Notes under the pieces: generated by a model
What the model was told of the DNA's origin: nothing
What the model saw: only the letters and a program-made list of their open reading frames with translations
Databases searched by the model: none
Part shown: in pieces, positions 3,181 through 22,889 of the stretch
How the letters are laid out: the number at the start of each line of letters is the position of its first letter
Numbering within the stretch: position 1 is the first letter of the stretch
Assembly (NCBI GenBank): GCA_045538275.1
Contig: JAZSRB010000008.1
Span: forward strand, 15,750 to 79,749
Reading direction: 5' to 3'
Length of the DNA: 64,000 bases
From: Akkermansia sp.
GTDB lineage: Bacteria; Verrucomicrobiota; Verrucomicrobiia; Verrucomicrobiales; Akkermansiaceae
Position numbers and translations under genes: made by a program

Positions 3181-3615
3181 TCAGAAGGTCAACATCGTAT
3201 AAAGAGCCCGTATCAGGTAATAAGCCGGCACTCCGATTGCCACCAGCACCAGAAGAAGTTGCAACACTTTCTTACGCATCCAGAGTCCCTTCCCTTTCTT
3301 CAATTCCTTGAGCACGTGCAACAAGGATGAGATATATGGCAGCATCAAGGTAAACAGAAAAGCCAGTATCAGAACCACGTACACCATCGCCGGCATTTTT
3401 CCTGGCATGACAATATCATAGGTCAGCACACCGAAAAGCGCCAGGAGCACGAGAAATTTCAACACAAGCAGCGCATAAATCACCGGGTGCTGCCGAATCC
3501 GGATTTTACGATACTTATCCACGTAGACCATACCATCCTTTCCCGGCAGAATATGCGTGCGAAAAAACAGGCCTGCCAAAAACGCCATGAGGATGATAAA
3601 GAATACTTCTAACAT
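3181..3615 (-). CDS. Hypothetical 4-TM membrane protein
   Basis: 144-aa ORF with four hydrophobic segments and an internal repeat (ILPGKDGMVYV / VMPGKMPAMVYV). Visibly more AT-rich than its neighbours. Confidence 0.75.
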   Translation of the reverse strand: MLEVFFIILMAFLAGLFFRTHILPGKDGMVYVDKYRKIRIRQHPVIYALLVLKFLVLLALFGVLTYDIVMPGKMPAMVYVVLILAFLFTLMLPYISSLLHVLKELKKGKGLWMRKKVLQLLLVLVAIGVPAYYLIRALYTMLTF

Positions 3616-3668
3616 GACCTCATTATAGCAAGCGCACCCGAATCAACAAGGAAAAAGCGATTCTGATG

Positions 3669-3757
3669 TAAGTCCGCCGTAGGCGGATATCGTCGCGGCA
3701 TCGCCGCGATATCTCTCCTGCGGGAAGACGATATCCTCCCGTTGGTCGGACGGGAAA
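3669..3757. repeat. Array of short hairpins punctuated by GATATC (right copy)
   Basis: Starts with TAAGTCCGCCGTAGGCGGATATCG, matching 3039-3062 at 23/24 positions. GATATC at 3686, 3708 and 3730. Confidence 0.8.
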
Positions 3758-3940: not shown

Positions 3941-5545
3941 TCACATGCGAGCGCGGCGGGGCGTTAAACGCAGCTGCACGGGGTAGGCCATGCCATGCGT
4001 CAGCGCCTCGGCAAACATACGGGCGGCATCTGCCGAGTGCGAAGAAGCATCGTGCACCGGGGTTTCACGATAGGTGCCGCTGGCCCCGGCGGGAGCGGTG
4101 CGGTACATTTCCAGGCAGCTGAGGCCGGAGGGTTCCTTTTCCCCGCGCGGGTTGACGCGCTGCTGCAGGGTATCGCGGTGGAACCAGCTGTGCGCCAGGA
4201 TACCACGCAGCGAATTGATACCGCGCCAGATATCCGGTGTGCGGGGCACCACCCGCACGGCGCAGATTCCCTCGCGCGCCAGACTTTCCACATAGGACTG
4301 CCCGTGCGGGTCGCGGTGGGCGGCATCGTGCGGCAGGAAATGCGCGGCAATATGGCCATAGCTCATCTCCCATTCGCGGATTTTTCCGGCAAAGTGCTCC
4401 AGCGGCAGCTGGTTGGCTGAATAGTGGTTCAGCCAATAGACATTGCCGCCGTAATTCTGCACCAGCCAGATGGAGGTGTGGTCGCTGAGTCCTAAATCCC
4501 ACGCGGTGTAGAGCGGCTCCTGCGGGTTGTAGTCGAACGCACAGCCAATGCGTCCCTTTTCGCGCAGCCGGGCAATCTGCGCACCGTAGATGGCGCCATC
4601 GTTGCCGGTGGCAAAGGCTTCATCCGGCGTGGAGGGGTATTCCTGCCGCATGGCAGCACCCATGGTGCGCTCCATGCGGGCGTACCAGAGTTTCTGTGCG
4701 TGGGTAAGCTGCACCCCGCACTCCTGCTCCAGCTTCTCGAAATAGGCAGCCTGGGCATCGGACCAGCCGGCCTTACCCTGCAAGGCATAGTCCGGGTTAT
4801 CGAACCAGCTCATGAAGAAGAAGCGGAAATCGAGCGGCGAAAGCTCCTCTTTGGCACAATTTTCCATGGCCTGTGAGGTCATTTCATAGTTCACGCCGTA
4901 GCGGCCCCCCTCATGCGTACTTTCCAGGATGATGGTACCCTCTGCCGGCACGGTATTAATGGCACCTGTTCGGATTTCACGTGCGCGCCAGGGCGCATGC
5001 ACCGAAACATGCGCCAGCTCGCTCACATGCAGCAGCTGCAGTGTGCCGCCGCGCAGGGTGGTACCCAGGCGGATATCGCTGCCATTGGCAAAGGCAAGGC
5101 GGCCGCGGGCATCCGCCGCGGGGTGCCAGGCTCCCTTTTTCACCATGCCGCTCTGCTGCTTGATGAGGTAGCCTACGCAGGCAAGAGCCTGTTCCTCCTC
5201 CGTAGCATGCGGCGGCAGGTAATCGAGGTGCTCCCAGGCAAAGCGCACCTTTTCGAGCTTCTGCTCGGCATCCGGCAGGGTCTTATCAATGATTCCCGCG
5301 TGGAAATTCGGCGTGAACAGGCAGTTATCCAGCATGAGCATGGCCACATAGGTGGAAATGCCCAGCTGGCGCGCCTTGAGCACCACATTGCGGTGCCACA
5401 GGTTGCGGTGCAGCCGCAGCTGCGCCGCATTGGGGGTGAACCTCTGCATGCGCCCGGATTTATTCTCAATCCAGTACAGGTTATTCAGGCGCCAGAGCGG
5501 GTCGCTCAGGCGGCTGCGGAACTGGGGATCAATAGAAGTCAGCAT
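3941..5545 (-). CDS. terL: Phage terminase large subunit (TerL)
   Basis: Walker A-type VLKARQLGISTY, Walker B LLHVSE, coupling motif ESTHEG, and RNase H-like nuclease motifs AWDLG, PHDA, HSADAARM. Start chosen at ATG 5545 (MLTSIDPQ); 5569 and 5572 are alternatives. Confidence 0.9.
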   Translation of the reverse strand: MLTSIDPQFRSRLSDPLWRLNNLYWIENKSGRMQRFTPNAAQLRLHRNLWHRNVVLKARQLGISTYVAMLMLDNCLFTPNFHAGIIDKTLPDAEQKLEKVRFAWEHLDYLPPHATEEEQALACVGYLIKQQSGMVKKGAWHPAADARGRLAFANGSDIRLGTTLRGGTLQLLHVSELAHVSVHAPWRAREIRTGAINTVPAEGTIILESTHEGGRYGVNYEMTSQAMENCAKEELSPLDFRFFFMSWFDNPDYALQGKAGWSDAQAAYFEKLEQECGVQLTHAQKLWYARMERTMGAAMRQEYPSTPDEAFATGNDGAIYGAQIARLREKGRIGCAFDYNPQEPLYTAWDLGLSDHTSIWLVQNYGGNVYWLNHYSANQLPLEHFAGKIREWEMSYGHIAAHFLPHDAAHRDPHGQSYVESLAREGICAVRVVPRTPDIWRGINSLRGILAHSWFHRDTLQQRVNPRGEKEPSGLSCLEMYRTAPAGASGTYRETPVHDASSHSADAARMFAEALTHGMAYPVQLRLTPRRARM

Positions 5546-18766: not shown

Positions 18767-18795
18767 TTGCAATTTCATGCGTATGTGCGTATAAT
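18767..18795 (+). promoter_or_regulatory. Sigma70-type promoter of the P-type ATPase
   Basis: TTGCAA-17 nt-TATAAT. Confidence 0.75.
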
Positions 18796-18811
18796 CAACG
18801 CCCCCGATCTT

Positions 18812-21709
18812 ATGAAAACCTACACCGACATCCACACCGGCCTGACCAGTGCCCAGGTAAAGGAAAGCCGCCAGCAGCATGGCAGCAACGAAATGACCCC
18901 ACCCAGCCGCGACCCATGGTGGGTGGAACTTGCCCGCAAATTTGCCGACCCGCTCATCGTCATCCTCCTGGCCGCAGCCGTCATCTCCTTCATCCCCGTC
19001 ATCCTTTCCCCCGGCGAGCACAGCCCCATCGAAAGCATCGGCATTCTCTGCGCCGTACTGCTCGCCACCACCGTGGGTTTTGTCAACGAATACCGCGCCA
19101 ACAAGGAATTCGACATCCTCAACAAAGTGAACGACGTCACCCCCGTGCGTGTACTGCGCGATGGCAAGCACACCATGGTGCCCAAAAATGAACTCGTGGT
19201 GGGTGATATCGTCACCCTCGAAACCGGTGTGGAAGTCCCGGCAGACGGCGTGGTGCTTGAATCCTCCTCCCTGCGCGTCAACCAGTCCTCCCTCACCGGC
19301 GAATCCGAACCCGTGCTCAAGCAACCCGGCGAGGGCGAGGAAACCCTCCCCGGCGCCTATCCGCGCAACGTGGTGCTGCGCAGCACCCTCGTGACCGATG
19401 GCCACGGCGTCATCTGCATCACCAAAGTGGGCGACCACACCGAAATTGGCAAGGTAGCCGAAGCCGCCACCAAGGAAAGCGGCGTCAAATCGCCGCTCAA
19501 CCTGCAGCTCGAGGGGCTCTCCCAGGCCATCAACGTGCTGGGCACCTCCATTGCCATGCTCCTCTTCGTCTCCCTCGTAGCACACGACGCGCTGCTGGGC
19601 AAATTCGTACTCACCACCAGCCAGTGGTACTACTTTGCCGCCCTCATCGCCGGCATTGCCGCCGCCACGCTGAAAATCTGGTATCCTGTGCTGCGAGACC
19701 TCCTCGGCTACATGAAGGTGCGCATCCCCTCCCCCGCCTGGGTGAAGCAGGGCGGCTTCGGCGCCTGGGGCAAGTGCCTCCTCACCGGTGCCATCATCTT
19801 CGGCGCTGCGCTGGCCGGCCTCATCTACAGCGGCATCCTGCCCGCCGACCCCGCCACCTGGATGCCCCAGGCCGCTGCGGATAAAATCCTCACCTACTTC
19901 ATGATTGCCATCACGCTCATCGTGGTTTCCGTGCCGGAAGGCCTGCCCATGAGCGTGACCCTGAGCCTGGCCTACAGCATGCGCAAAATGGCGAAGCAGA
20001 ACAACCTCGTGCGCGAAATGGACGCCTGCGAAACCATTGGTGCCGCCACCGTAGTCTGCTCCGATAAGACCGGCACCCTCACCATGAACCTCATGACCGT
20101 GCGCGAAGCCAACTTCCCCGGCGTGAACGAACAAGGTGCCGCCGCCCCCATCTTCCCCCTGCTCACCGAGGCCGTGGCCGCCAACTCCACCGCCGACCTC
20201 GATGAAGAAGGCAAGGTGCTCGGCAACGTGACCGAAGGCGCCATGCTCATGTACCTCAACGGCAAAGGCATCTCCTATGCCGATGCCCGCAGCAAGTTCA
20301 GCGTCATCGCCCAACTTCCCTTCCACACCCAGAACAAATTCATGGCCACCTGCGGCAACTCCGCCGTACTCGGTAAAGAGGTCATCTTCCTGAAAGGCGC
20401 ACCCGAGGTGGTACTTTCCAGGTGCTCCACAGCCTACGCCAGCGAGCTCACCGATGCCGCCCGCGAGGAAGTGCTCACCATCATCCGCACCGCCCAGCGC
20501 AAAGCCATGCGCGTGCTCGGCCTCGCCTACAAGGAAGGCCGAGCCGACACCCCCGAAGCAGTCAAGGAAGCCTGCACCGACCTCACCTGGCTGGGCTGCT
20601 TCGTCATCCAGGATCCTGTGCGCCCGGACGTTCCAGCCGCCGTGGCTTCCTGCCACAAAGCCGGCGTGGGGATCAAGATTGTAACCGGCGATAACTTCGA
20701 AACCGCCTGCCAGATTGGCCGCGAAATCGGTCTGCTGCCAGAGGGCGAACTGCCCCAGGGCGCCGTGCTCACCGGCGACCAGTTCGGCCAGCTCACCGAG
20801 CAGCAACTGCTCGATGGCGTGAATGACCTCCGCGTGCTCTCCCGCGCCAAACCCATGGACAAACTGCGCCTCGTCAACGCCCTGCAGGAAAAAGGCCACG
20901 TCGTCGCCGTCACCGGCGATGGCACCAACGATGCCCCCGCCCTCAACCATGCCGATGTAGGCCTCTCCATGGGCATCACCGGCACCTCCGTGGCCAAGGA
21001 AGCCTCCGATATCATCCTGCTGGATGACTCCTTCGCCTCCATCATCCGCGCCATCAAGTGGGGGCGCTCGCTCTACCGCAACATCCAGAAATTCATCGTC
21101 TTCCAGCTCACCGTGAACGTAGCTGCCTGCGGTATCGCCGCGCTGGGGCCCTTCATCGGCTGCGAGCTGCCCCTCACCGTCACGCAGATGCTCTGGGTCA
21201 ACCTCATCATGGACACCTTCGCCGCCCTGGCCCTCGCCTCCGAACCGCCCAGCGATGACGTCATGGAGCAGAAACCCCGCAACAAGTTCGCCTTCATCAT
21301 CACCCCCGCCATGTGGCGCTGGATTCTCTGCCTCGGCATCGGCTTCATCATCGCCCTGGTGAGCTACGTGAAGTGCATGCCCTCGCAGGAGCTTGAACCG
21401 GAAGCCTTCCGCCACTCCGTCACCCTGCTCTTCACCGGCTTTGTGATGCTGCAGTTCTGGAACCTGTTCAACGCCCGCGTCTACGGCACCAACAACAGCT
21501 TCGTGAACGGCATCTTTGCCAACCGCAGCTTCCTTTTCATCCTCGCCGTCATCCTCTTCGGCCAGGTACTGGCCACCCAGTTCGGTGGCGATATCTTCCG
21601 CACCGTGCCCCTCACGCTCTGCGAATGGCTCACCCTCGCCGCGGTCACCTGCCCGGTCCTCATCATCGGCGAAATCGTCCGCCTCATCGGCCGCGTCCGC
21701 GCCAGATAA
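18812..21709 (+). CDS. Calcium-translocating P-type ATPase (PMCA-like)
   Basis: LTGES actuator motif, VPEGLP, DKTGTLT phosphorylation site, KGAPE, TGDGTNDAPAL and QMLWVNLIMDT. Confidence 0.95.
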   Translation: MKTYTDIHTGLTSAQVKESRQQHGSNEMTPPSRDPWWVELARKFADPLIVILLAAAVISFIPVILSPGEHSPIESIGILCAVLLATTVGFVNEYRANKEFDILNKVNDVTPVRVLRDGKHTMVPKNELVVGDIVTLETGVEVPADGVVLESSSLRVNQSSLTGESEPVLKQPGEGEETLPGAYPRNVVLRSTLVTDGHGVICITKVGDHTEIGKVAEAATKESGVKSPLNLQLEGLSQAINVLGTSIAMLLFVSLVAHDALLGKFVLTTSQWYYFAALIAGIAAATLKIWYPVLRDLLGYMKVRIPSPAWVKQGGFGAWGKCLLTGAIIFGAALAGLIYSGILPADPATWMPQAAADKILTYFMIAITLIVVSVPEGLPMSVTLSLAYSMRKMAKQNNLVREMDACETIGAATVVCSDKTGTLTMNLMTVREANFPGVNEQGAAAPIFPLLTEAVAANSTADLDEEGKVLGNVTEGAMLMYLNGKGISYADARSKFSVIAQLPFHTQNKFMATCGNSAVLGKEVIFLKGAPEVVLSRCSTAYASELTDAAREEVLTIIRTAQRKAMRVLGLAYKEGRADTPEAVKEACTDLTWLGCFVIQDPVRPDVPAAVASCHKAGVGIKIVTGDNFETACQIGREIGLLPEGELPQGAVLTGDQFGQLTEQQLLDGVNDLRVLSRAKPMDKLRLVNALQEKGHVVAVTGDGTNDAPALNHADVGLSMGITGTSVAKEASDIILLDDSFASIIRAIKWGRSLYRNIQKFIVFQLTVNVAACGIAALGPFIGCELPLTVTQMLWVNLIMDTFAALALASEPPSDDVMEQKPRNKFAFIITPAMWRWILCLGIGFIIALVSYVKCMPSQELEPEAFRHSVTLLFTGFVMLQFWNLFNARVYGTNNSFVNGIFANRSFLFILAVILFGQVLATQFGGDIFRTVPLTLCEWLTLAAVTCPVLIIGEIVRLIGRVRAR

Positions 21710-21874: not shown

Positions 21875-21904
21875 TTGTGCTGTTTTGTTGTTCTGTGGTA
21901 CACT
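21875..21904 (+). promoter_or_regulatory. Putative promoter of the small ORF, overlapping a LexA-box-like palindrome
   Basis: TTGTGC-18-TACACT with extended -10 TGn. TGTTC-tgtg-GTACA at 21889-21902 overlaps the -10. Confidence 0.55.
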
Positions 21905-21948
21905 CCGCATGCCGCCTGGTGCGGCAAAAGCCAGGCGGCATATAAACA

Positions 21949-22047
21949 ATGAAATTAGTAATCATGCGCCTGACGGCAGCCCACCTTAACCCGGTGCTGG
22001 CTGAGCAACTAATCTGGATTCTCTTCGTTGCGTTCCAGAGGTGTTAG
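21949..22047 (+). CDS. Small hydrophobic peptide (32 aa), candidate type I toxin
   Basis: MKLVIMRLTAAHLNPVLAEQLIWILFVAFQRC*. Preceded by an 11-bp perfect 5' hairpin (21909-21941) containing the SD-like AGGCGG, and followed by its own terminator. Confidence 0.6.
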   Translation: MKLVIMRLTAAHLNPVLAEQLIWILFVAFQRC

Positions 22048-22054
22048 AATCCAC

Positions 22055-22098
22055 GCCCCGCCCCGGAAAACCGGGGCGGGGCAAAATCTTTTTTTTTT
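22055..22098 (+). terminator. Terminator of the small-ORF mRNA
   Basis: 12-bp perfect stem gccccgccccgg-aaaa-ccggggcggggc followed by a long T-run. Confidence 0.75.
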
Positions 22099-22105
22099 AC
22101 ACATC

Positions 22106-22134
22106 TTGACTTTACCCTCCAACTGTGCTTTAAT
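22106..22134 (+). promoter_or_regulatory. Sigma70-type promoter of the putative sRNA
   Basis: TTGACT-17 nt-TTTAAT. Confidence 0.7.
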
Positions 22135-22140
22135 CATTCC

Positions 22141-22219
22141 CAGCGGGAAACCGCTGTTACTAATTTCATTTATATCAGCCCCCGGGTGTTGCCGCACCGC
22201 TAACGGGGGCTTTTTCTTT
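22141..22219 (+). ncRNA. Putative ~80-nt sRNA, candidate antitoxin
   Basis: Own promoter, 5' hairpin cagcgg-GAAA-ccgctg, AU-rich linker and terminator agcccccg...cgggggct-TTTTCTTT. No ORF. 14-nt and 10-nt perfect complementarity to the upstream small-ORF mRNA. Confidence 0.65.
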
Positions 22220-22610
22220 GGTTAGTGATAGCACCAGCACGTAGAAAAGCCCGCTTGCCCAGATAATCCATAAAGCGCGTGAATGCCCGCTTGCGGTTGC
22301 TCTCTGTCTTAGCTCCAGCCTGTCCCTGAAACTCGGTAAGATACTCGCGAACGGTAGGCATCTTGCCACCCATGCCGCTTGCCTGCGCCACAGAGCGCAA
22401 GGCATCAGCGGCTTGCAGGTAGGTAGTCTGCCCCTTGGCAAGGCGTTCCATGCCGTCCGCTACTTCCTGCGCGAGCTTCTGGGCTTGTCTGGCAGACATG
22501 CCGTCCCTGCCCTTAACGGGTACGCCCGTAGACTTGCGTATCTTCTTGCCGTCCTGCTTCCAGCACGCAACGTAAACGCAGCTGCCCTGTCTTGTTTCAG
22601 TCCATGCCAT
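22200..22610 (-). pseudogene. 3'-truncated tyrosine integrase (N-terminal arm-binding/core-binding part only)
   Basis: Beta-rich N-terminus (VYVACWKQDGKKIRKSTG), then helices and PTVREYL.EF...KT..NRK.A..RF..YLG. No catalytic R-H-R-Y domain. Directly downstream of a tRNA 3' end. The family assignment is by resemblance only. Confidence 0.65.
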
Positions 22611-22645: not shown

Positions 22646-22745
22646 TGTGCCCCCTGCAAGAGGTGTGTCCCCGGGGGGGGTCCCCTGTGTGTCCCCTCCT
22701 GTGGGCTTATCTGTGTCCCCACGCTACCACAGCAATATGTGCCCC
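22646..22745. repeat. Five direct copies of TGTGYCCCC (putative integrase arm-type sites)
   Basis: Copies at 22646, 22664, 22688, 22712 and 22738 (the last is 8/9), between the tRNA 3' end and the integrase start. Confidence 0.7.
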
Positions 22746-22815: not shown

Positions 22816-22889
22816 TTGCGGGAGCAGGATTTGAACCTGCGGCCTTCAGGTTATGAGCCTGACGAGCTACCTGGCTGCTCCATCCCGCG
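22816..22889 (-). tRNA. tRNA-Met(CAT), initiator type (fMet)
   Basis: CGCGGGATGGAGCAGCCAGGTAGCTCGTCAGGCTCATAACCTGAAGGCCGCAGGTTCAAATCCTGCTCCCGCAA. C1:A72 mismatch and CAT anticodon. CCA not encoded. Confidence 0.95.

Follow-up and report, generated by a model that had tools for sequence, protein, structure and literature searches.

Organization of the locus

The analysed window is a 64,000-nt stretch of an Akkermansia sp. genome (GenBank assembly GCA_045538275.1, contig JAZSRB010000008.1). It contains a compact module of two tandem genes on the same strand, a gene for a 32-aa peptide and, downstream, a candidate small RNA (sRNA) gene, each with a putative promoter and an intrinsic terminator (Table 1). 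A P-type cation ATPase gene (18767-21709) ends 240 nt before the module. A preliminary description of this DNA had proposed an extended -10 element, an 11-bp 5′ hairpin in which an SD-like AGGCGG is buried, a short ORF, a 12-bp terminator after it, and a second promoter (TTGACT-17-TTTAAT) serving a downstream unit with its own terminator. All of these elements were located in the sequence, at or close to the positions given, the ORF with the expected translation and the first terminator followed by a T run. The second promoter, together with the 5′ hairpin and terminator of the downstream unit, was also found to be conserved across loci.

Table 1. Coordinates of the module and its flanking features in the window
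Feature	Position	Strand	Details
Peptide-gene promoter	21875..21904	+	weak -35-like TTGTGC 21875-21880; extended -10 TGgTACACT 21896-21904
5′-terminal GC-rich hairpin of peptide mRNA	21909..21941	+	conserved core 21911-21939
Translation initiation region, block 2 target	21940..21961	+	ATATA, 3-nt bulge, AATGAAATTAGTAA across AUG 21949-21951
32-aa peptide gene, candidate toxin	21949..22047	+	ORF giving MKLVIMRLTAAHLNPVLAEQLIWILFVAFQRC; AUG 21949-21951
Peptide-mRNA intrinsic terminator	22055..22098	+	12-bp all-GC stem (22055-22082), GAAA-type loop, T run 22089-22098
sRNA promoter	22106..22134	+	TTGACT 22106-22111, 17-nt spacer, TTTAAT 22129-22134; TG 22126-22127
sRNA stem-loop 1 (SL1)	22141..22156	+	CAGCGG-GAAA-CCGCUG; from fold
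sRNA recognition block (block 2′)	22157..22176	+	UUACUAAUUUCAUU + UAUAU; bears anti-start CAU
sRNA terminator hairpin and U tail	22177..22219	+	AGCCCCCG...CGGGGGCU; apical part bears UUGCCGCACC (22189-22198, block 1′)
Remnant N-terminal part (136 codons) of tyrosine-integrase-like gene	22200..22610	-	runs into sRNA terminator
tRNA-Met (CAT)	22816..22889	-	Rfam + ARAGORN

Transcription of the peptide mRNA is predicted to start at ~21910-21912, and the transcript would be ~185 nt long (~21911-22098), opening with a stable 5′ hairpin. An inverted-repeat check gave this hairpin a perfect 11-bp stem (21909-21919/21931-21941), and it folds on its own at -22 kcal/mol. AGGCGG lies at 21933-21938 within its 3′ arm, while its loop bears GGTGCGGCAA (21918-21927), one of two proposed targets of the sRNA and hereafter the block 1 target. 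A 5′-terminal hairpin of this kind would be expected to stabilise the mRNA. Its stem and the sequence CGGCAAA are kept in all modules, and a -10 of the TGnTAnnnT type lines up in the alignment of nine modules. The stem of the first terminator shows compensatory changes between loci and is followed by a 10-T run.

The sRNA would be ~78 nt long (~22141-22219) and be made from a separate, strong promoter ~45 nt past the mRNA terminator. The form CTTGAC-17-(TG)nTNTAAT is kept both in complete modules and in orphan sRNA copies. A simple consensus promoter scanner called neither the peptide nor the sRNA promoter in the window; support for both comes from their conservation across loci. In SL1, five of the six base pairs are altered on both sides across 22 sRNAs, and none of 500 shuffles matched the covariation score. 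The minimum-energy fold leaves block 2′ unpaired. No copy of the sRNA deviates from GTGTTGCCGCAC, whereas the outer terminator stem differs in one type (L011). The conserved promoter, the covariation of SL1 and the existence of solo copies that carry promoter and terminator suggest that the sRNA gene is a unit of its own. Read as its reverse complement, the mRNA 5′ hairpin is similar to the sRNA terminator (15/18 positions). The sRNA gene looks like an inverted duplicate of the 5′ end of the peptide mRNA.

The peptide gene is under coding constraint

The N-terminus of the peptide is variable and its C-terminal helix is near-invariant, with 13 invariant columns in the alignment. The C-terminal half, NPVLAEQLIWILF[IV]AFQRC, varies mostly synonymously: among variant codons of the C-terminal 19 codons, 18 were synonymous and 11 nonsynonymous in the reading frame of the peptide, whereas the other two frames gave 7/26 and 1/30. 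By this pattern of codon change, the ORF is under coding constraint.

An AF2 model of the peptide consists of a helix at residues 2-12, a kink at N14-P15 and a second helix at 15-31. Type I toxins are small (usually <60 aa), hydrophobic products of real, conserved ORFs, and the peptides of this family agree with that description at 30-32 aa and GRAVY values of 1.0-1.7, a moderate hydrophobicity. The peptide of the window has a GRAVY of 1.08, with 1.44 in its top 19-residue window; TisB, Fst and IbsC served as approximate yardsticks for hydropathy. With this moderate hydrophobicity and with R, H, N, E and Q among its residues, the peptide is not certain to be a transmembrane toxin of the classical type. 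Membrane targeting seems plausible for such a peptide, and its toxicity is suggested by analogy with known systems and by the distribution pattern described below.

The peptide had no match in Pfam, NCBIfam, PADLOC or PHROGs, and a profile search of 1.84 billion protein representatives returned 11 relatives, all of the same family. In Rfam 15 no match reached the gathering score, and a single noise match was the only one up to E=10. Because neither peptide nor RNA matches a known family, the earlier proposal of a new family in a tandem layout holds.

The sRNA recognition block co-varies with the start region of the mRNA

A repeat check recovered an exact 14-nt inverted repeat, 21948-21961/22157-22170, confirming the complementarity that had been noticed between the start-codon region and the sRNA. 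The 5-bp extension beyond a 3-nt bulge (ATATA/TATAT) was likewise present, and the resulting block 2 duplex has 19 pairs and spans -10 to +14 of the mRNA. In 300 shuffles of the 345 nt comprising the module, the longest distant inverted repeat was at most 10 nt. The observed complementarity is therefore far beyond chance. When the sRNA was cofolded with the mRNA, as the preliminary description had recommended, pairing was favoured by a ddG of -13 to -15 kcal/mol and both hairpins were retained.

The first codons of the peptide gene and the single-stranded block of the sRNA differ among at least 11 classes, yet they remain complementary over the AUG. The mean duplex energy was -20.6 kcal/mol for cognate pairs and -8.9 kcal/mol (sd 5.2) for non-cognate pairs; for each mRNA the cognate sRNA was the best partner, or the only better ones were nearly identical sRNAs from the same class or a sister class. 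Every cognate duplex covers the AUG, with a length of 14-29 bp depending on the class. CAT occurs in the last 16 nt of 20 of the 22 distinct blocks, where 0.31 would be expected. The RNA thus has what defines a type I antitoxin, linkage to a candidate toxin gene and complementarity to its mRNA, as far as these can be read from sequence.

The second block of complementarity behaves differently from the first in the covariation analysis that had been suggested for both. Block 2 co-varies across the classes, whereas block 1 is invariant, so no covariation backs the pairing of block 1. The exact match of GGTGCGGCAA to TTGCCGCACC (22189-22198) stood, and it extends to 15/18 positions, but block 1′ is not a free loop. 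In the minimum-energy fold of the sRNA, GGUGU/GCACC forms an inner helix and just UGCC and an internal loop are unpaired. The block 1 match is cut to 6+3 bp with a U:C mismatch in classes whose mRNA reads GGTTCGGCAA. A fully extended duplex of 63 nt is also possible in the window (-66 kcal/mol). We did not rely on this duplex, since it had no clear advantage over block 2 combined with the two hairpins and since other classes do not conserve the extension.

Distribution in Akkermansia

Of 151 Akkermansia species genomes, 34 have a match to the sRNA model and 27 to the peptide profile; the spread is patchy, with 1-5 module copies per genome. The carriers are mostly metagenome-assembled genomes (MAGs) from herbivore guts. 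The architecture is kept in nine aligned modules of 70-79% identity and in 22 distinct modules obtained by a pattern search; ~24 of the 71 pattern matches, in GC-rich phyla, lacked the promoter and terminator context and were discarded as chance. Each of the 32 uninterrupted peptide genes is followed, 80-200 nt downstream, by an sRNA on the same strand. In eight genomes the sRNA occurs by itself, pseudogenised toxins retain it, and the sole genome with a toxin match and no sRNA carries a decapitated toxin fragment. In these genomes an intact candidate toxin gene is thus never found without the sRNA, whereas the sRNA without a toxin is common. An orphan sRNA also lies on another contig (C3) of the window's own genome, at a site where a relative has the full module, and solo copies of the 46-nt terminator occur.

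As far as found, the family is confined to Akkermansia. The covariance model gave nothing credible in 19 other genera of Akkermansiaceae; one weak match outside the genus was merely a hairpin and terminator after an HU gene. Blastn against 24 genomes from the order's other families returned no match, nor was the module found in the phage, plasmid and viral contigs searched.

Genomic context

Some 46 of the 78 copies have a tRNA gene no more than 1.5 kb away. In the window, the integrase remnant that runs into the sRNA terminator had no Pfam match of its own and is 44-47% identical to the N-termini of homologues at two other loci (L040 and L084), the first of which is a complete integrase of 396 aa that carries PF00589 and PF13102. 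The neighbouring tRNA-Met gene is the probable integration target of a decayed island, and the same tRNA region adjoins modules in several other species. At L040 the module is the final cargo of an intact 4.1-kb island that also holds tRNA-Gln, an integrase and a TerS-like gene; att-like repeats at 274-353 and 4359-4440 delimit this island. No att site or target duplication was found around the window's copy.

We also examined host factors. No Hfq domain was detected in the 98%-complete genome; Hfq dependence was therefore rejected, and the module probably works without Hfq. Control of the toxin promoter by LexA/SOS was rejected because the same genome has no LexA_DNA_bind domain. A LexA-like palindrome is present in some classes and absent from most, and TGTTC-N4-GAACA (≤1 mismatch) occurs 36 times genome-wide, at chance level and away from repair genes.

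Discussion

We interpret the locus as a member of a new family of type I toxin-antitoxin-like modules, found only in Akkermansia, a reading to which we assign a probability of roughly 0.7. This agrees with the preliminary description, and it is supported by the coding constraint on the peptide, by the co-variation of the start region over at least 11 classes and by the rule that the toxin does not occur without the sRNA. In the mechanism that we envisage, the single-stranded block of the sRNA would pair with an mRNA segment that begins shortly before the AUG and ends near codon 5. Pairing would keep ribosomes from binding and yield a duplex open to cleavage by RNase III, so that the direction of regulation would be repression. 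The invariant UUGCCG(CACC) atop the sRNA terminator may meet the invariant CGGCAA of the mRNA 5′ hairpin loop in a kissing step, which probably supplies a fast first contact. Such a contact would suit a genome without detectable Hfq. The module appears to travel on small integrase islands at tRNA genes, where it would probably stabilise the islands or exclude rival elements; cells that lose the sRNA would be killed or arrested.

A different reading accepts a genuine sRNA-mRNA unit and makes the peptide non-toxic, a small membrane or accessory protein that has a physiological role and is produced only under certain conditions; the sRNA would then be a translational repressor of the ordinary kind. 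The moderate hydrophobicity and the polar residues within both helices are in keeping with it, and strict conservation of the C-terminal helix would also suit a specific protein partner. However, no neighbour gene that could encode such a partner is conserved. The patchy, multi-copy spread (1-5 per genome in 27/151 species), the sRNA-only genomes, the toxin pseudogenes with retained sRNA, the diversified recognition classes and the copies at tRNA/integrase islands all speak against it, because distribution, orphan sRNAs, class diversity and island sites are hallmarks of addiction modules rather than of housekeeping micro-proteins. We therefore regard a non-toxic peptide as rather improbable.

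It is less likely still that the complementarity acts mainly in cis. Because both units lie on the same strand, a read-through RNA would hold both complementary blocks, and its 3′ part could fold back on the start region in the manner of hok mRNA with no free sRNA. Two natural deletion variants do fuse the peptide gene to the sRNA body: in L027 the first terminator is absent and the gene runs directly into the sRNA, and in L088 the junction lies between the two GGGAAACC loops. L088, however, has a stop codon in the peptide gene and is thus a decaying copy. Read-through would also have to pass a conserved terminator with a 12-bp all-GC stem and a 10-T run, and a near-consensus sRNA promoter is present in all classes and in orphans without an upstream peptide gene.

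The position of the module 240 nt after the ATPase gene raises the question of whether the short, helical, hydrophobic peptide is a regulatory micropeptide of that pump, like sarcolipin, phospholamban, KdpF or MgtR/MgtS. A database protein (P0010) is even a chimera of the N-terminal part of the peptide and the C-terminus of such an ATPase. Among the loci compared, however, the ATPase 3′ end adjoins the module in the window's own genome only; other copies lie beside various tRNAs, integrases, an H+-pyrophosphatase gene and other genes. Neither orphan sRNAs nor 11 recognition classes would go with a dedicated regulator, and the genomic context of the other loci effectively rules this idea out. 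Equally hard to credit is that the inverted repeats are DNA-level features without RNA function (recombination or attachment sites, or ends of a miniature element): the ~400-bp unit does occur at many tRNA-adjacent sites in both orientations relative to integrase remnants, and solo terminators exist, but one side of the repeats falls within coding sequence that is under purifying selection and the other within a unit running from promoter to terminator, the ~400-bp unit has no flanking target-site duplication or terminal repeat, the att-like repeats of L040 are elsewhere, and the repeats change in step and always over the start codon, for which a DNA site has no cause.

If the type I reading is correct, a well-supported Akkermansia family would bring a phylum of gut bacteria that live with hosts into the range of this class. 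Our literature search returned no report of a type I system in Akkermansia or Verrucomicrobia. According to an article of 2025 that proposes a cyanobacterial candidate (PMC12390103), type I systems were until then known only from Proteobacteria, Firmicutes and Tenericutes. The tandem same-strand layout departs from the usual assumptions of type I search heuristics. Naturally co-varying blocks on a constant scaffold would offer a test of how sRNA specificity evolves, and the classes could be a source of orthogonal RNA regulators; RNA regulators are now being engineered from type I systems (PMC12721322). The module also marks small integrase islands at Akkermansia tRNA genes, where neither of its genes is currently annotated.

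More tentatively, and with clearly lower confidence than in the module itself, we consider a broader scenario that is possible and on balance doubtful: a first type I family of Verrucomicrobiota with Hfq-free, two-part recognition, in which toxin-less sRNAs act as anti-addiction immunity and the classes reflect an arms race. In that case, an invariant UUGCCG/CGGCAA hairpin-loop contact, common to all members, would allow fast docking and a hypervariable start-codon block would set specificity, giving at least 11 mutually orthogonal natural sRNA-mRNA pairs. The many toxin-less sRNAs, including the copy on contig C3, would confer immunity against toxins of incoming tRNA-targeting islands, and diversification of the classes would record the contest between islands.

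Comparison with known type I systems

A close likeness is with par of pAD1 from Enterococcus faecalis, in which the RNA I/Fst mRNA has a structured 5′ end and RNA II is the antitoxin. RNA II pairs at several blocks, one of them over the translation initiation region; a terminator-loop first contact has been proposed, and the antitoxin acts in trans although it is encoded next door. The Akkermansia module shares with par an mRNA for a small hydrophobic peptide, a structured 5′ end and predicted multi-block pairing that includes the initiation region, as well as the proposed terminator-loop first contact and trans action on a non-overlapping region. The par genes, however, converge on one bidirectional terminator, which makes their complementary blocks direct repeats; the Akkermansia genes are tandem on one strand with two terminators and their blocks are inverted repeats. 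Further differences are that the peptide does not resemble Fst, matching nothing in Pfam or NCBIfam, and that the sRNA terminator loop is complementary to the mRNA 5′ hairpin loop rather than to the mRNA terminator. With its tandem order, separate terminators and absence of Pfam, NCBIfam and Rfam matches, the module does not belong to the par/Fst-RNA II family.

In TisB/IstR-1, ShoB/OhsC and DinQ/AgrB, a neighbouring, divergent sRNA gene lies upstream of the toxin, with ~16-25 nt of complementarity. Several enterobacterial type I sRNAs pair in the 5′ UTR or at a standby site and not over the AUG, and TisB and DinQ are under LexA control. The trans-encoded pair ZorO/OrzO is of the same kind, and zorO-orzO and zorP-orzP are duplicated, diverged and non-cross-reacting (PMC3919570). 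A neighbouring sRNA gene with limited complementarity is common to these four systems and the Akkermansia module, as is a structured 5′ end of the toxin mRNA, thought to limit translation in the enterobacterial pairs; diverged recognition sequences are shared with zorO-orzO/zorP-orzP. Unlike in the enterobacterial pairs, the Akkermansia sRNA lies downstream on the same strand and would pair over the AUG. This position, together with the lack of a LexA domain, separates the module from the SOS-controlled pairs TisB/IstR-1 and DinQ/AgrB.

RalR/RalA of the E. coli rac prophage combines a DNase toxin with an Hfq-requiring sRNA in the opposite orientation, which has 16 nt of complementarity and pairs within the coding region (PMC4041452). 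In both modules a trans-encoded sRNA gene closely follows the toxin gene, candidate toxin gene in our case, within an integrated element that has decayed. The exact complementarity is short in each, 16 nt for RalA and 14 nt for the Akkermansia sRNA, and both sRNAs combine a 5′ stem-loop with an intrinsic terminator. The Akkermansia module differs in its same-strand genes, its small hydrophobic peptide and the lack of a detected Hfq.

Type I modules of Clostridioides difficile are carried on mobile elements and maintain them (PMC7699646), and the SprA1/SprA2 antitoxins of Staphylococcus aureus exert their effect in trans by way of a domain outside the overlap, which covers the start region (PMC6393315). 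Searches of Rfam, Pfam and NCBIfam revealed no sequence or family relationship to these modules. Their antitoxins are cis-encoded and overlap the toxin gene, whereas there is no overlap here. What the Akkermansia module has in common with them is a small-peptide toxin, a candidate in our case, paired with an RNA antitoxin on integrated elements that such modules are thought to stabilise.

Structure of the module in the window

The candidate toxin-antitoxin unit at 21875-22219 consists of a 32-aa peptide gene and, downstream on the same strand, an sRNA gene. All the features listed in the preliminary description (promoters, hairpin, ORF, terminators and both complementary blocks) were found in the sequence. 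In 300 of 300 shuffles of the 345 nt, the longest distant inverted repeat was 10 nt or shorter.

Features of the peptide gene and sRNA gene in the window
Feature	Position	Strand	Basis
Extended -10 of peptide gene, TGgTACACT	21896-21904	+	sequence
Perfect 11-bp hairpin, with AGGCGG (21933-21938) within the 3' arm	21909-21941	+	sequence
32-codon ORF	21949-22047	+	sequence
12-bp all-GC terminator followed by a T run	22055-22082	+	sequence
sRNA promoter, TTGACT, 17 nt, TGcTTTAAT	22106-22111; -10 at 22129-22134	+	sequence
Second terminator, closing the ORF-less unit	22177-22219	+	sequence
Block 2 and block 2', exact 14-nt inverted repeat	21948-21961 vs 22157-22170		repeat search
Block 1 and block 1', exact 10-nt match extending to 15/18	21918-21927 vs 22189-22198		repeat search

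The predicted folds agreed with the RNA structures proposed earlier: the mRNA has a hairpin at its very start, and the sRNA has a 5' stem-loop (SL1) closed by a GAAA loop, then 21 unpaired nt that include block 2', and the terminator. The picture needs one correction: a small GGUGU/GCACC inner helix at the terminator top leaves block 1' only partly exposed. When the two RNAs were cofolded, block 2 was paired across the AUG and both hairpins were retained; cofolding gained -13 to -15 kcal/mol.

Distribution and conserved anatomy

By blastn against relatives, whole-module homologues of 70-79% identity were found in several Akkermansia species, up to three per genome; the last 46 nt of the module also matched on their own at many places. 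When one genome per species was scanned with a pattern, the hosts were Akkermansia MAGs, mostly from goat, sheep, yak, buffalo, deer and cattle. In GC-rich phyla, about two dozen matches had none of the module's context and were dismissed as chance. A covariance model of the sRNA, run over 151 Akkermansia species genomes, matched 34 (1-5 copies each), and the peptide profile matched 27 of 151. The sRNA model gave nothing credible outside Akkermansia in 251 genomes sampled from 20 genera of the family, where one weak match proved to be a mere hairpin and terminator behind an HU gene. A profile search of 1.84 billion protein cluster representatives returned 11 proteins, all of them the peptide or mis-called extensions. 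No copy was found in complete genomes of the genus, and no match in Rfam, Pfam, NCBIfam, PADLOC or PHROGs or on the phages, plasmids and viral contigs searched. As judged by these searches, the module is a family confined to Akkermansia.

Across the family, the TGnTAnnnT-type -10 and the 5' hairpin GCCGCCUGG...CCAGGCGGC are kept, the loop CGGCAAA is invariant, and the AUG lies 8-10 nt past the hairpin. Five to eight early codons are A/U-rich and locus-specific, and the C-terminal part, NPVLAEQLIWILF(I/V)AFQRC plus the stop codon, is almost invariant. The GC-rich terminator of the peptide gene shows compensatory stem changes between loci. Downstream, the promoter CTTGAC-17-(TG)nTNTAAT is kept, followed by SL1 with a GNRA-like loop and a variable block. 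Five of the six SL1 pairs have two-sided changes, and the covariation score was reached by none of 500 shuffles. The apical GUGUUGCCGCAC of the sRNA terminator is unchanging, even in a sub-family with a different outer stem (GCCCGCCA/UGGCGGGC).

Over the C-terminal 19 codons, distinct variant codons were 18 synonymous versus 11 nonsynonymous, the latter mostly conservative and from the divergent sub-family; counted likewise, the other two frames gave 7/26 and 1/30. Judged by these counts, the ORF is coding. AlphaFold2 with the family alignment predicted helices at residues 2-12 and 15-31, the second with confidence, separated by a break at N14-P15 (mean pLDDT 76; 94 over residues 21-30). The peptide is hydrophobic, though not extremely (GRAVY 1.08, best 19-residue window 1.44 in the window copy; other classes score higher).

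Covariation of the start region with the sRNA

To the mRNA region from -12 to +30 of 16 distinct modules, each sRNA variable block was paired in all combinations. The mean duplex energy was -20.6 kcal/mol for cognate pairs versus -8.9 (sd 5.2) for non-cognate pairs, and the cognate sRNA ranked first for each mRNA unless a near-identical relative from the same or a sister class outdid it. The recognition classes number at least 11 (for example AUGAAAUUAGUAAUC, AUGAAAAAAAUAAUAACC, AUGAUAACAUUGAUAAC, AUGACUAGACUAGAC and AUGAUACAAUACGCACUG). Cognate duplexes ran from between -2 and -11 to between +14 and +34, with the start codon covered in every one, and 20 of 22 distinct blocks had an anti-start CAU within their last 16 nt, where 0.31 would be expected. 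Of all the evidence that the downstream unit is an RNA acting on the peptide mRNA, this co-variation of block 2 is the strongest.

Block 1 behaved differently: both partners are invariant, so that complementary sequences are conserved without covariation, and the match drops to six contiguous pairs plus three in classes whose mRNA has GGUUCGGCAA. For these two reasons a loop-loop kissing step is rated plausible, though unproven. Such a step would suit the window's own genome (98% complete, 2.1 Mb), in which no Hfq domain (PF17209) was detected. Because the sRNA terminator hairpin resembles the reverse complement of the mRNA 5' hairpin, comparison of the two suggests that the sRNA gene originated as an inverted duplicate of the mRNA 5' end.

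Linkage, orphan sRNAs and decayed copies

When sRNA-model and peptide-profile matches were combined, each of the 32 full-length uninterrupted peptide genes was followed on its own strand, 80-200 nt downstream, by an sRNA match. Eight genomes (G005, G012, G013, G014, G023, G104, G150 and G165) had the sRNA only, and several peptide genes were broken by stops, frameshifts or truncations yet retained it. The sole genome with a peptide match and no sRNA, G029, held a fragment without start and 5' hairpin.

The window's genome has a second, toxin-less sRNA on another contig (C3, 1385-1462, minus strand; locus L002/L098), which follows an H+-pyrophosphatase gene and that gene's terminator. Another species has the complete module at this site (L020), with an identical sRNA, and from this comparison about 190 nt with the peptide gene is judged to have been lost at C3. 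The orphan's recognition block does not match the window mRNA (-4 kcal/mol).

Tandem sRNA pairs of different classes occur at L017/L022/L066 (248 nt apart) and L037; these loci have no intact peptide genes and adjoin tRNA-Cys or tRNA-Leu. In a natural deletion variant, L027:1-160, the peptide-gene terminator is absent and the stop codon leads directly into the sRNA promoter. Another, L088 (minus strand, near the end), is joined between two copies of GGGAAACC, one in the first terminator loop and the other in SL1; its peptide gene also carries a stop codon (CAA to TAA). Solo 46-nt sRNA terminators lacking sRNA promoter, SL1 and recognition block (L013 and L039:7780-7860) directly follow an unrelated gene's stop codon, as if reused as its terminator.

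Association with tRNA genes and islands

For about 46 of the 78 copies compared, a tRNA gene (Met, two Leu, two Arg, two Ser, Cys or Gln) is no more than 1.5 kb away, versus an estimated 6% or so for random positions. An intact 4.1-kb island at L040:218-4440 contains, in order, tRNA-Gln, a 396-aa tyrosine integrase (PF00589), an Sf6-type small-terminase-like gene, an unknown ORF and the module, and ends in 80-nt att-like repeats 4.08 kb apart (274-353 and 4359-4440). By analogy, the integrase and small terminase recall phage-inducible chromosomal islands. In L040 the toxin promoter and first hairpin bases are duplicated 354 nt upstream (3305-3357 and 3659-3711, 87% over 53 nt), and the promoter's -10 region (CTGCTGTACAAT) shares TGCTGTACA with four direct repeats by the integrase gene (384-474), a hint that this promoter might be controlled by a DNA-binding protein of the island.

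The window copy has a P-type ATPase gene's terminator on one side and, on the other, a 136-codon integrase-like remnant running into the sRNA terminator, with short repeats and then tRNA-Met beyond. No att-like repeat was found on its left side, which fits a collapsed island. Several TGTGYCCCC direct repeats, probably arm-type integrase sites, lie at 22646-22725 between remnant and tRNA-Met; the motif also occurs 3' of the sRNA elsewhere, e.g. ...GCGTGTCCCCTCACTCAC in L007, L008, L015 and L017.

Interpretation and comparison with known systems

The locus is best read as a type I toxin-antitoxin-like module. The peptide mRNA would be stable and poorly translated, the sRNA would mask its start codon, and the module might aid the persistence of small islands or shut out competitors. 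We are confident that the RNA pair is genuine and only moderately confident that the peptide is toxic. In the main rival reading, which is less likely, the peptide would be a small protein under regulation but not toxic. Specific observations conflict with a purely cis fold-back role of the downstream element and with a DNA-site role of the repeats. They also conflict with a role of the peptide as an ATPase regulator, since among the loci compared the P-type ATPase adjoins the module only in the window's genome. A 99-aa database protein, P0010, fuses peptide residues 6-26 (MRLTAAHLNPVLAEQLIWILF) with the last 78 residues of a P-type ATPase resembling that at 18767-21709; the fusion, at a short W-x-LF similarity, may stem from recombination or from an assembly junction. 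LexA control of the toxin promoter was rejected: no LexA DNA-binding domain (PF01726) was detected in the window's genome, the motif count was at chance level, and the palindrome was present in some classes only.

A passage in a 2025 paper (PMC12390103) gives type I systems as known only from Proteobacteria, Firmicutes and Tenericutes, and our literature search found nothing on such systems for Akkermansia or Verrucomicrobia. Functionally closest is par (Fst/RNA II), through the multi-block pairing with hairpin-loop first contact proposed here. Also close are the trans-encoded enterobacterial pairs and RalR/RalA, with a similarly neighbouring, non-overlapping sRNA gene, RalA being adjacent to its toxin gene in opposite orientation (PMC4041452). 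The module differs from all of these in their defining features (gene orientation, peptide family, LexA or Hfq dependence), and its tandem same-strand layout is unmatched among the type I families compared.
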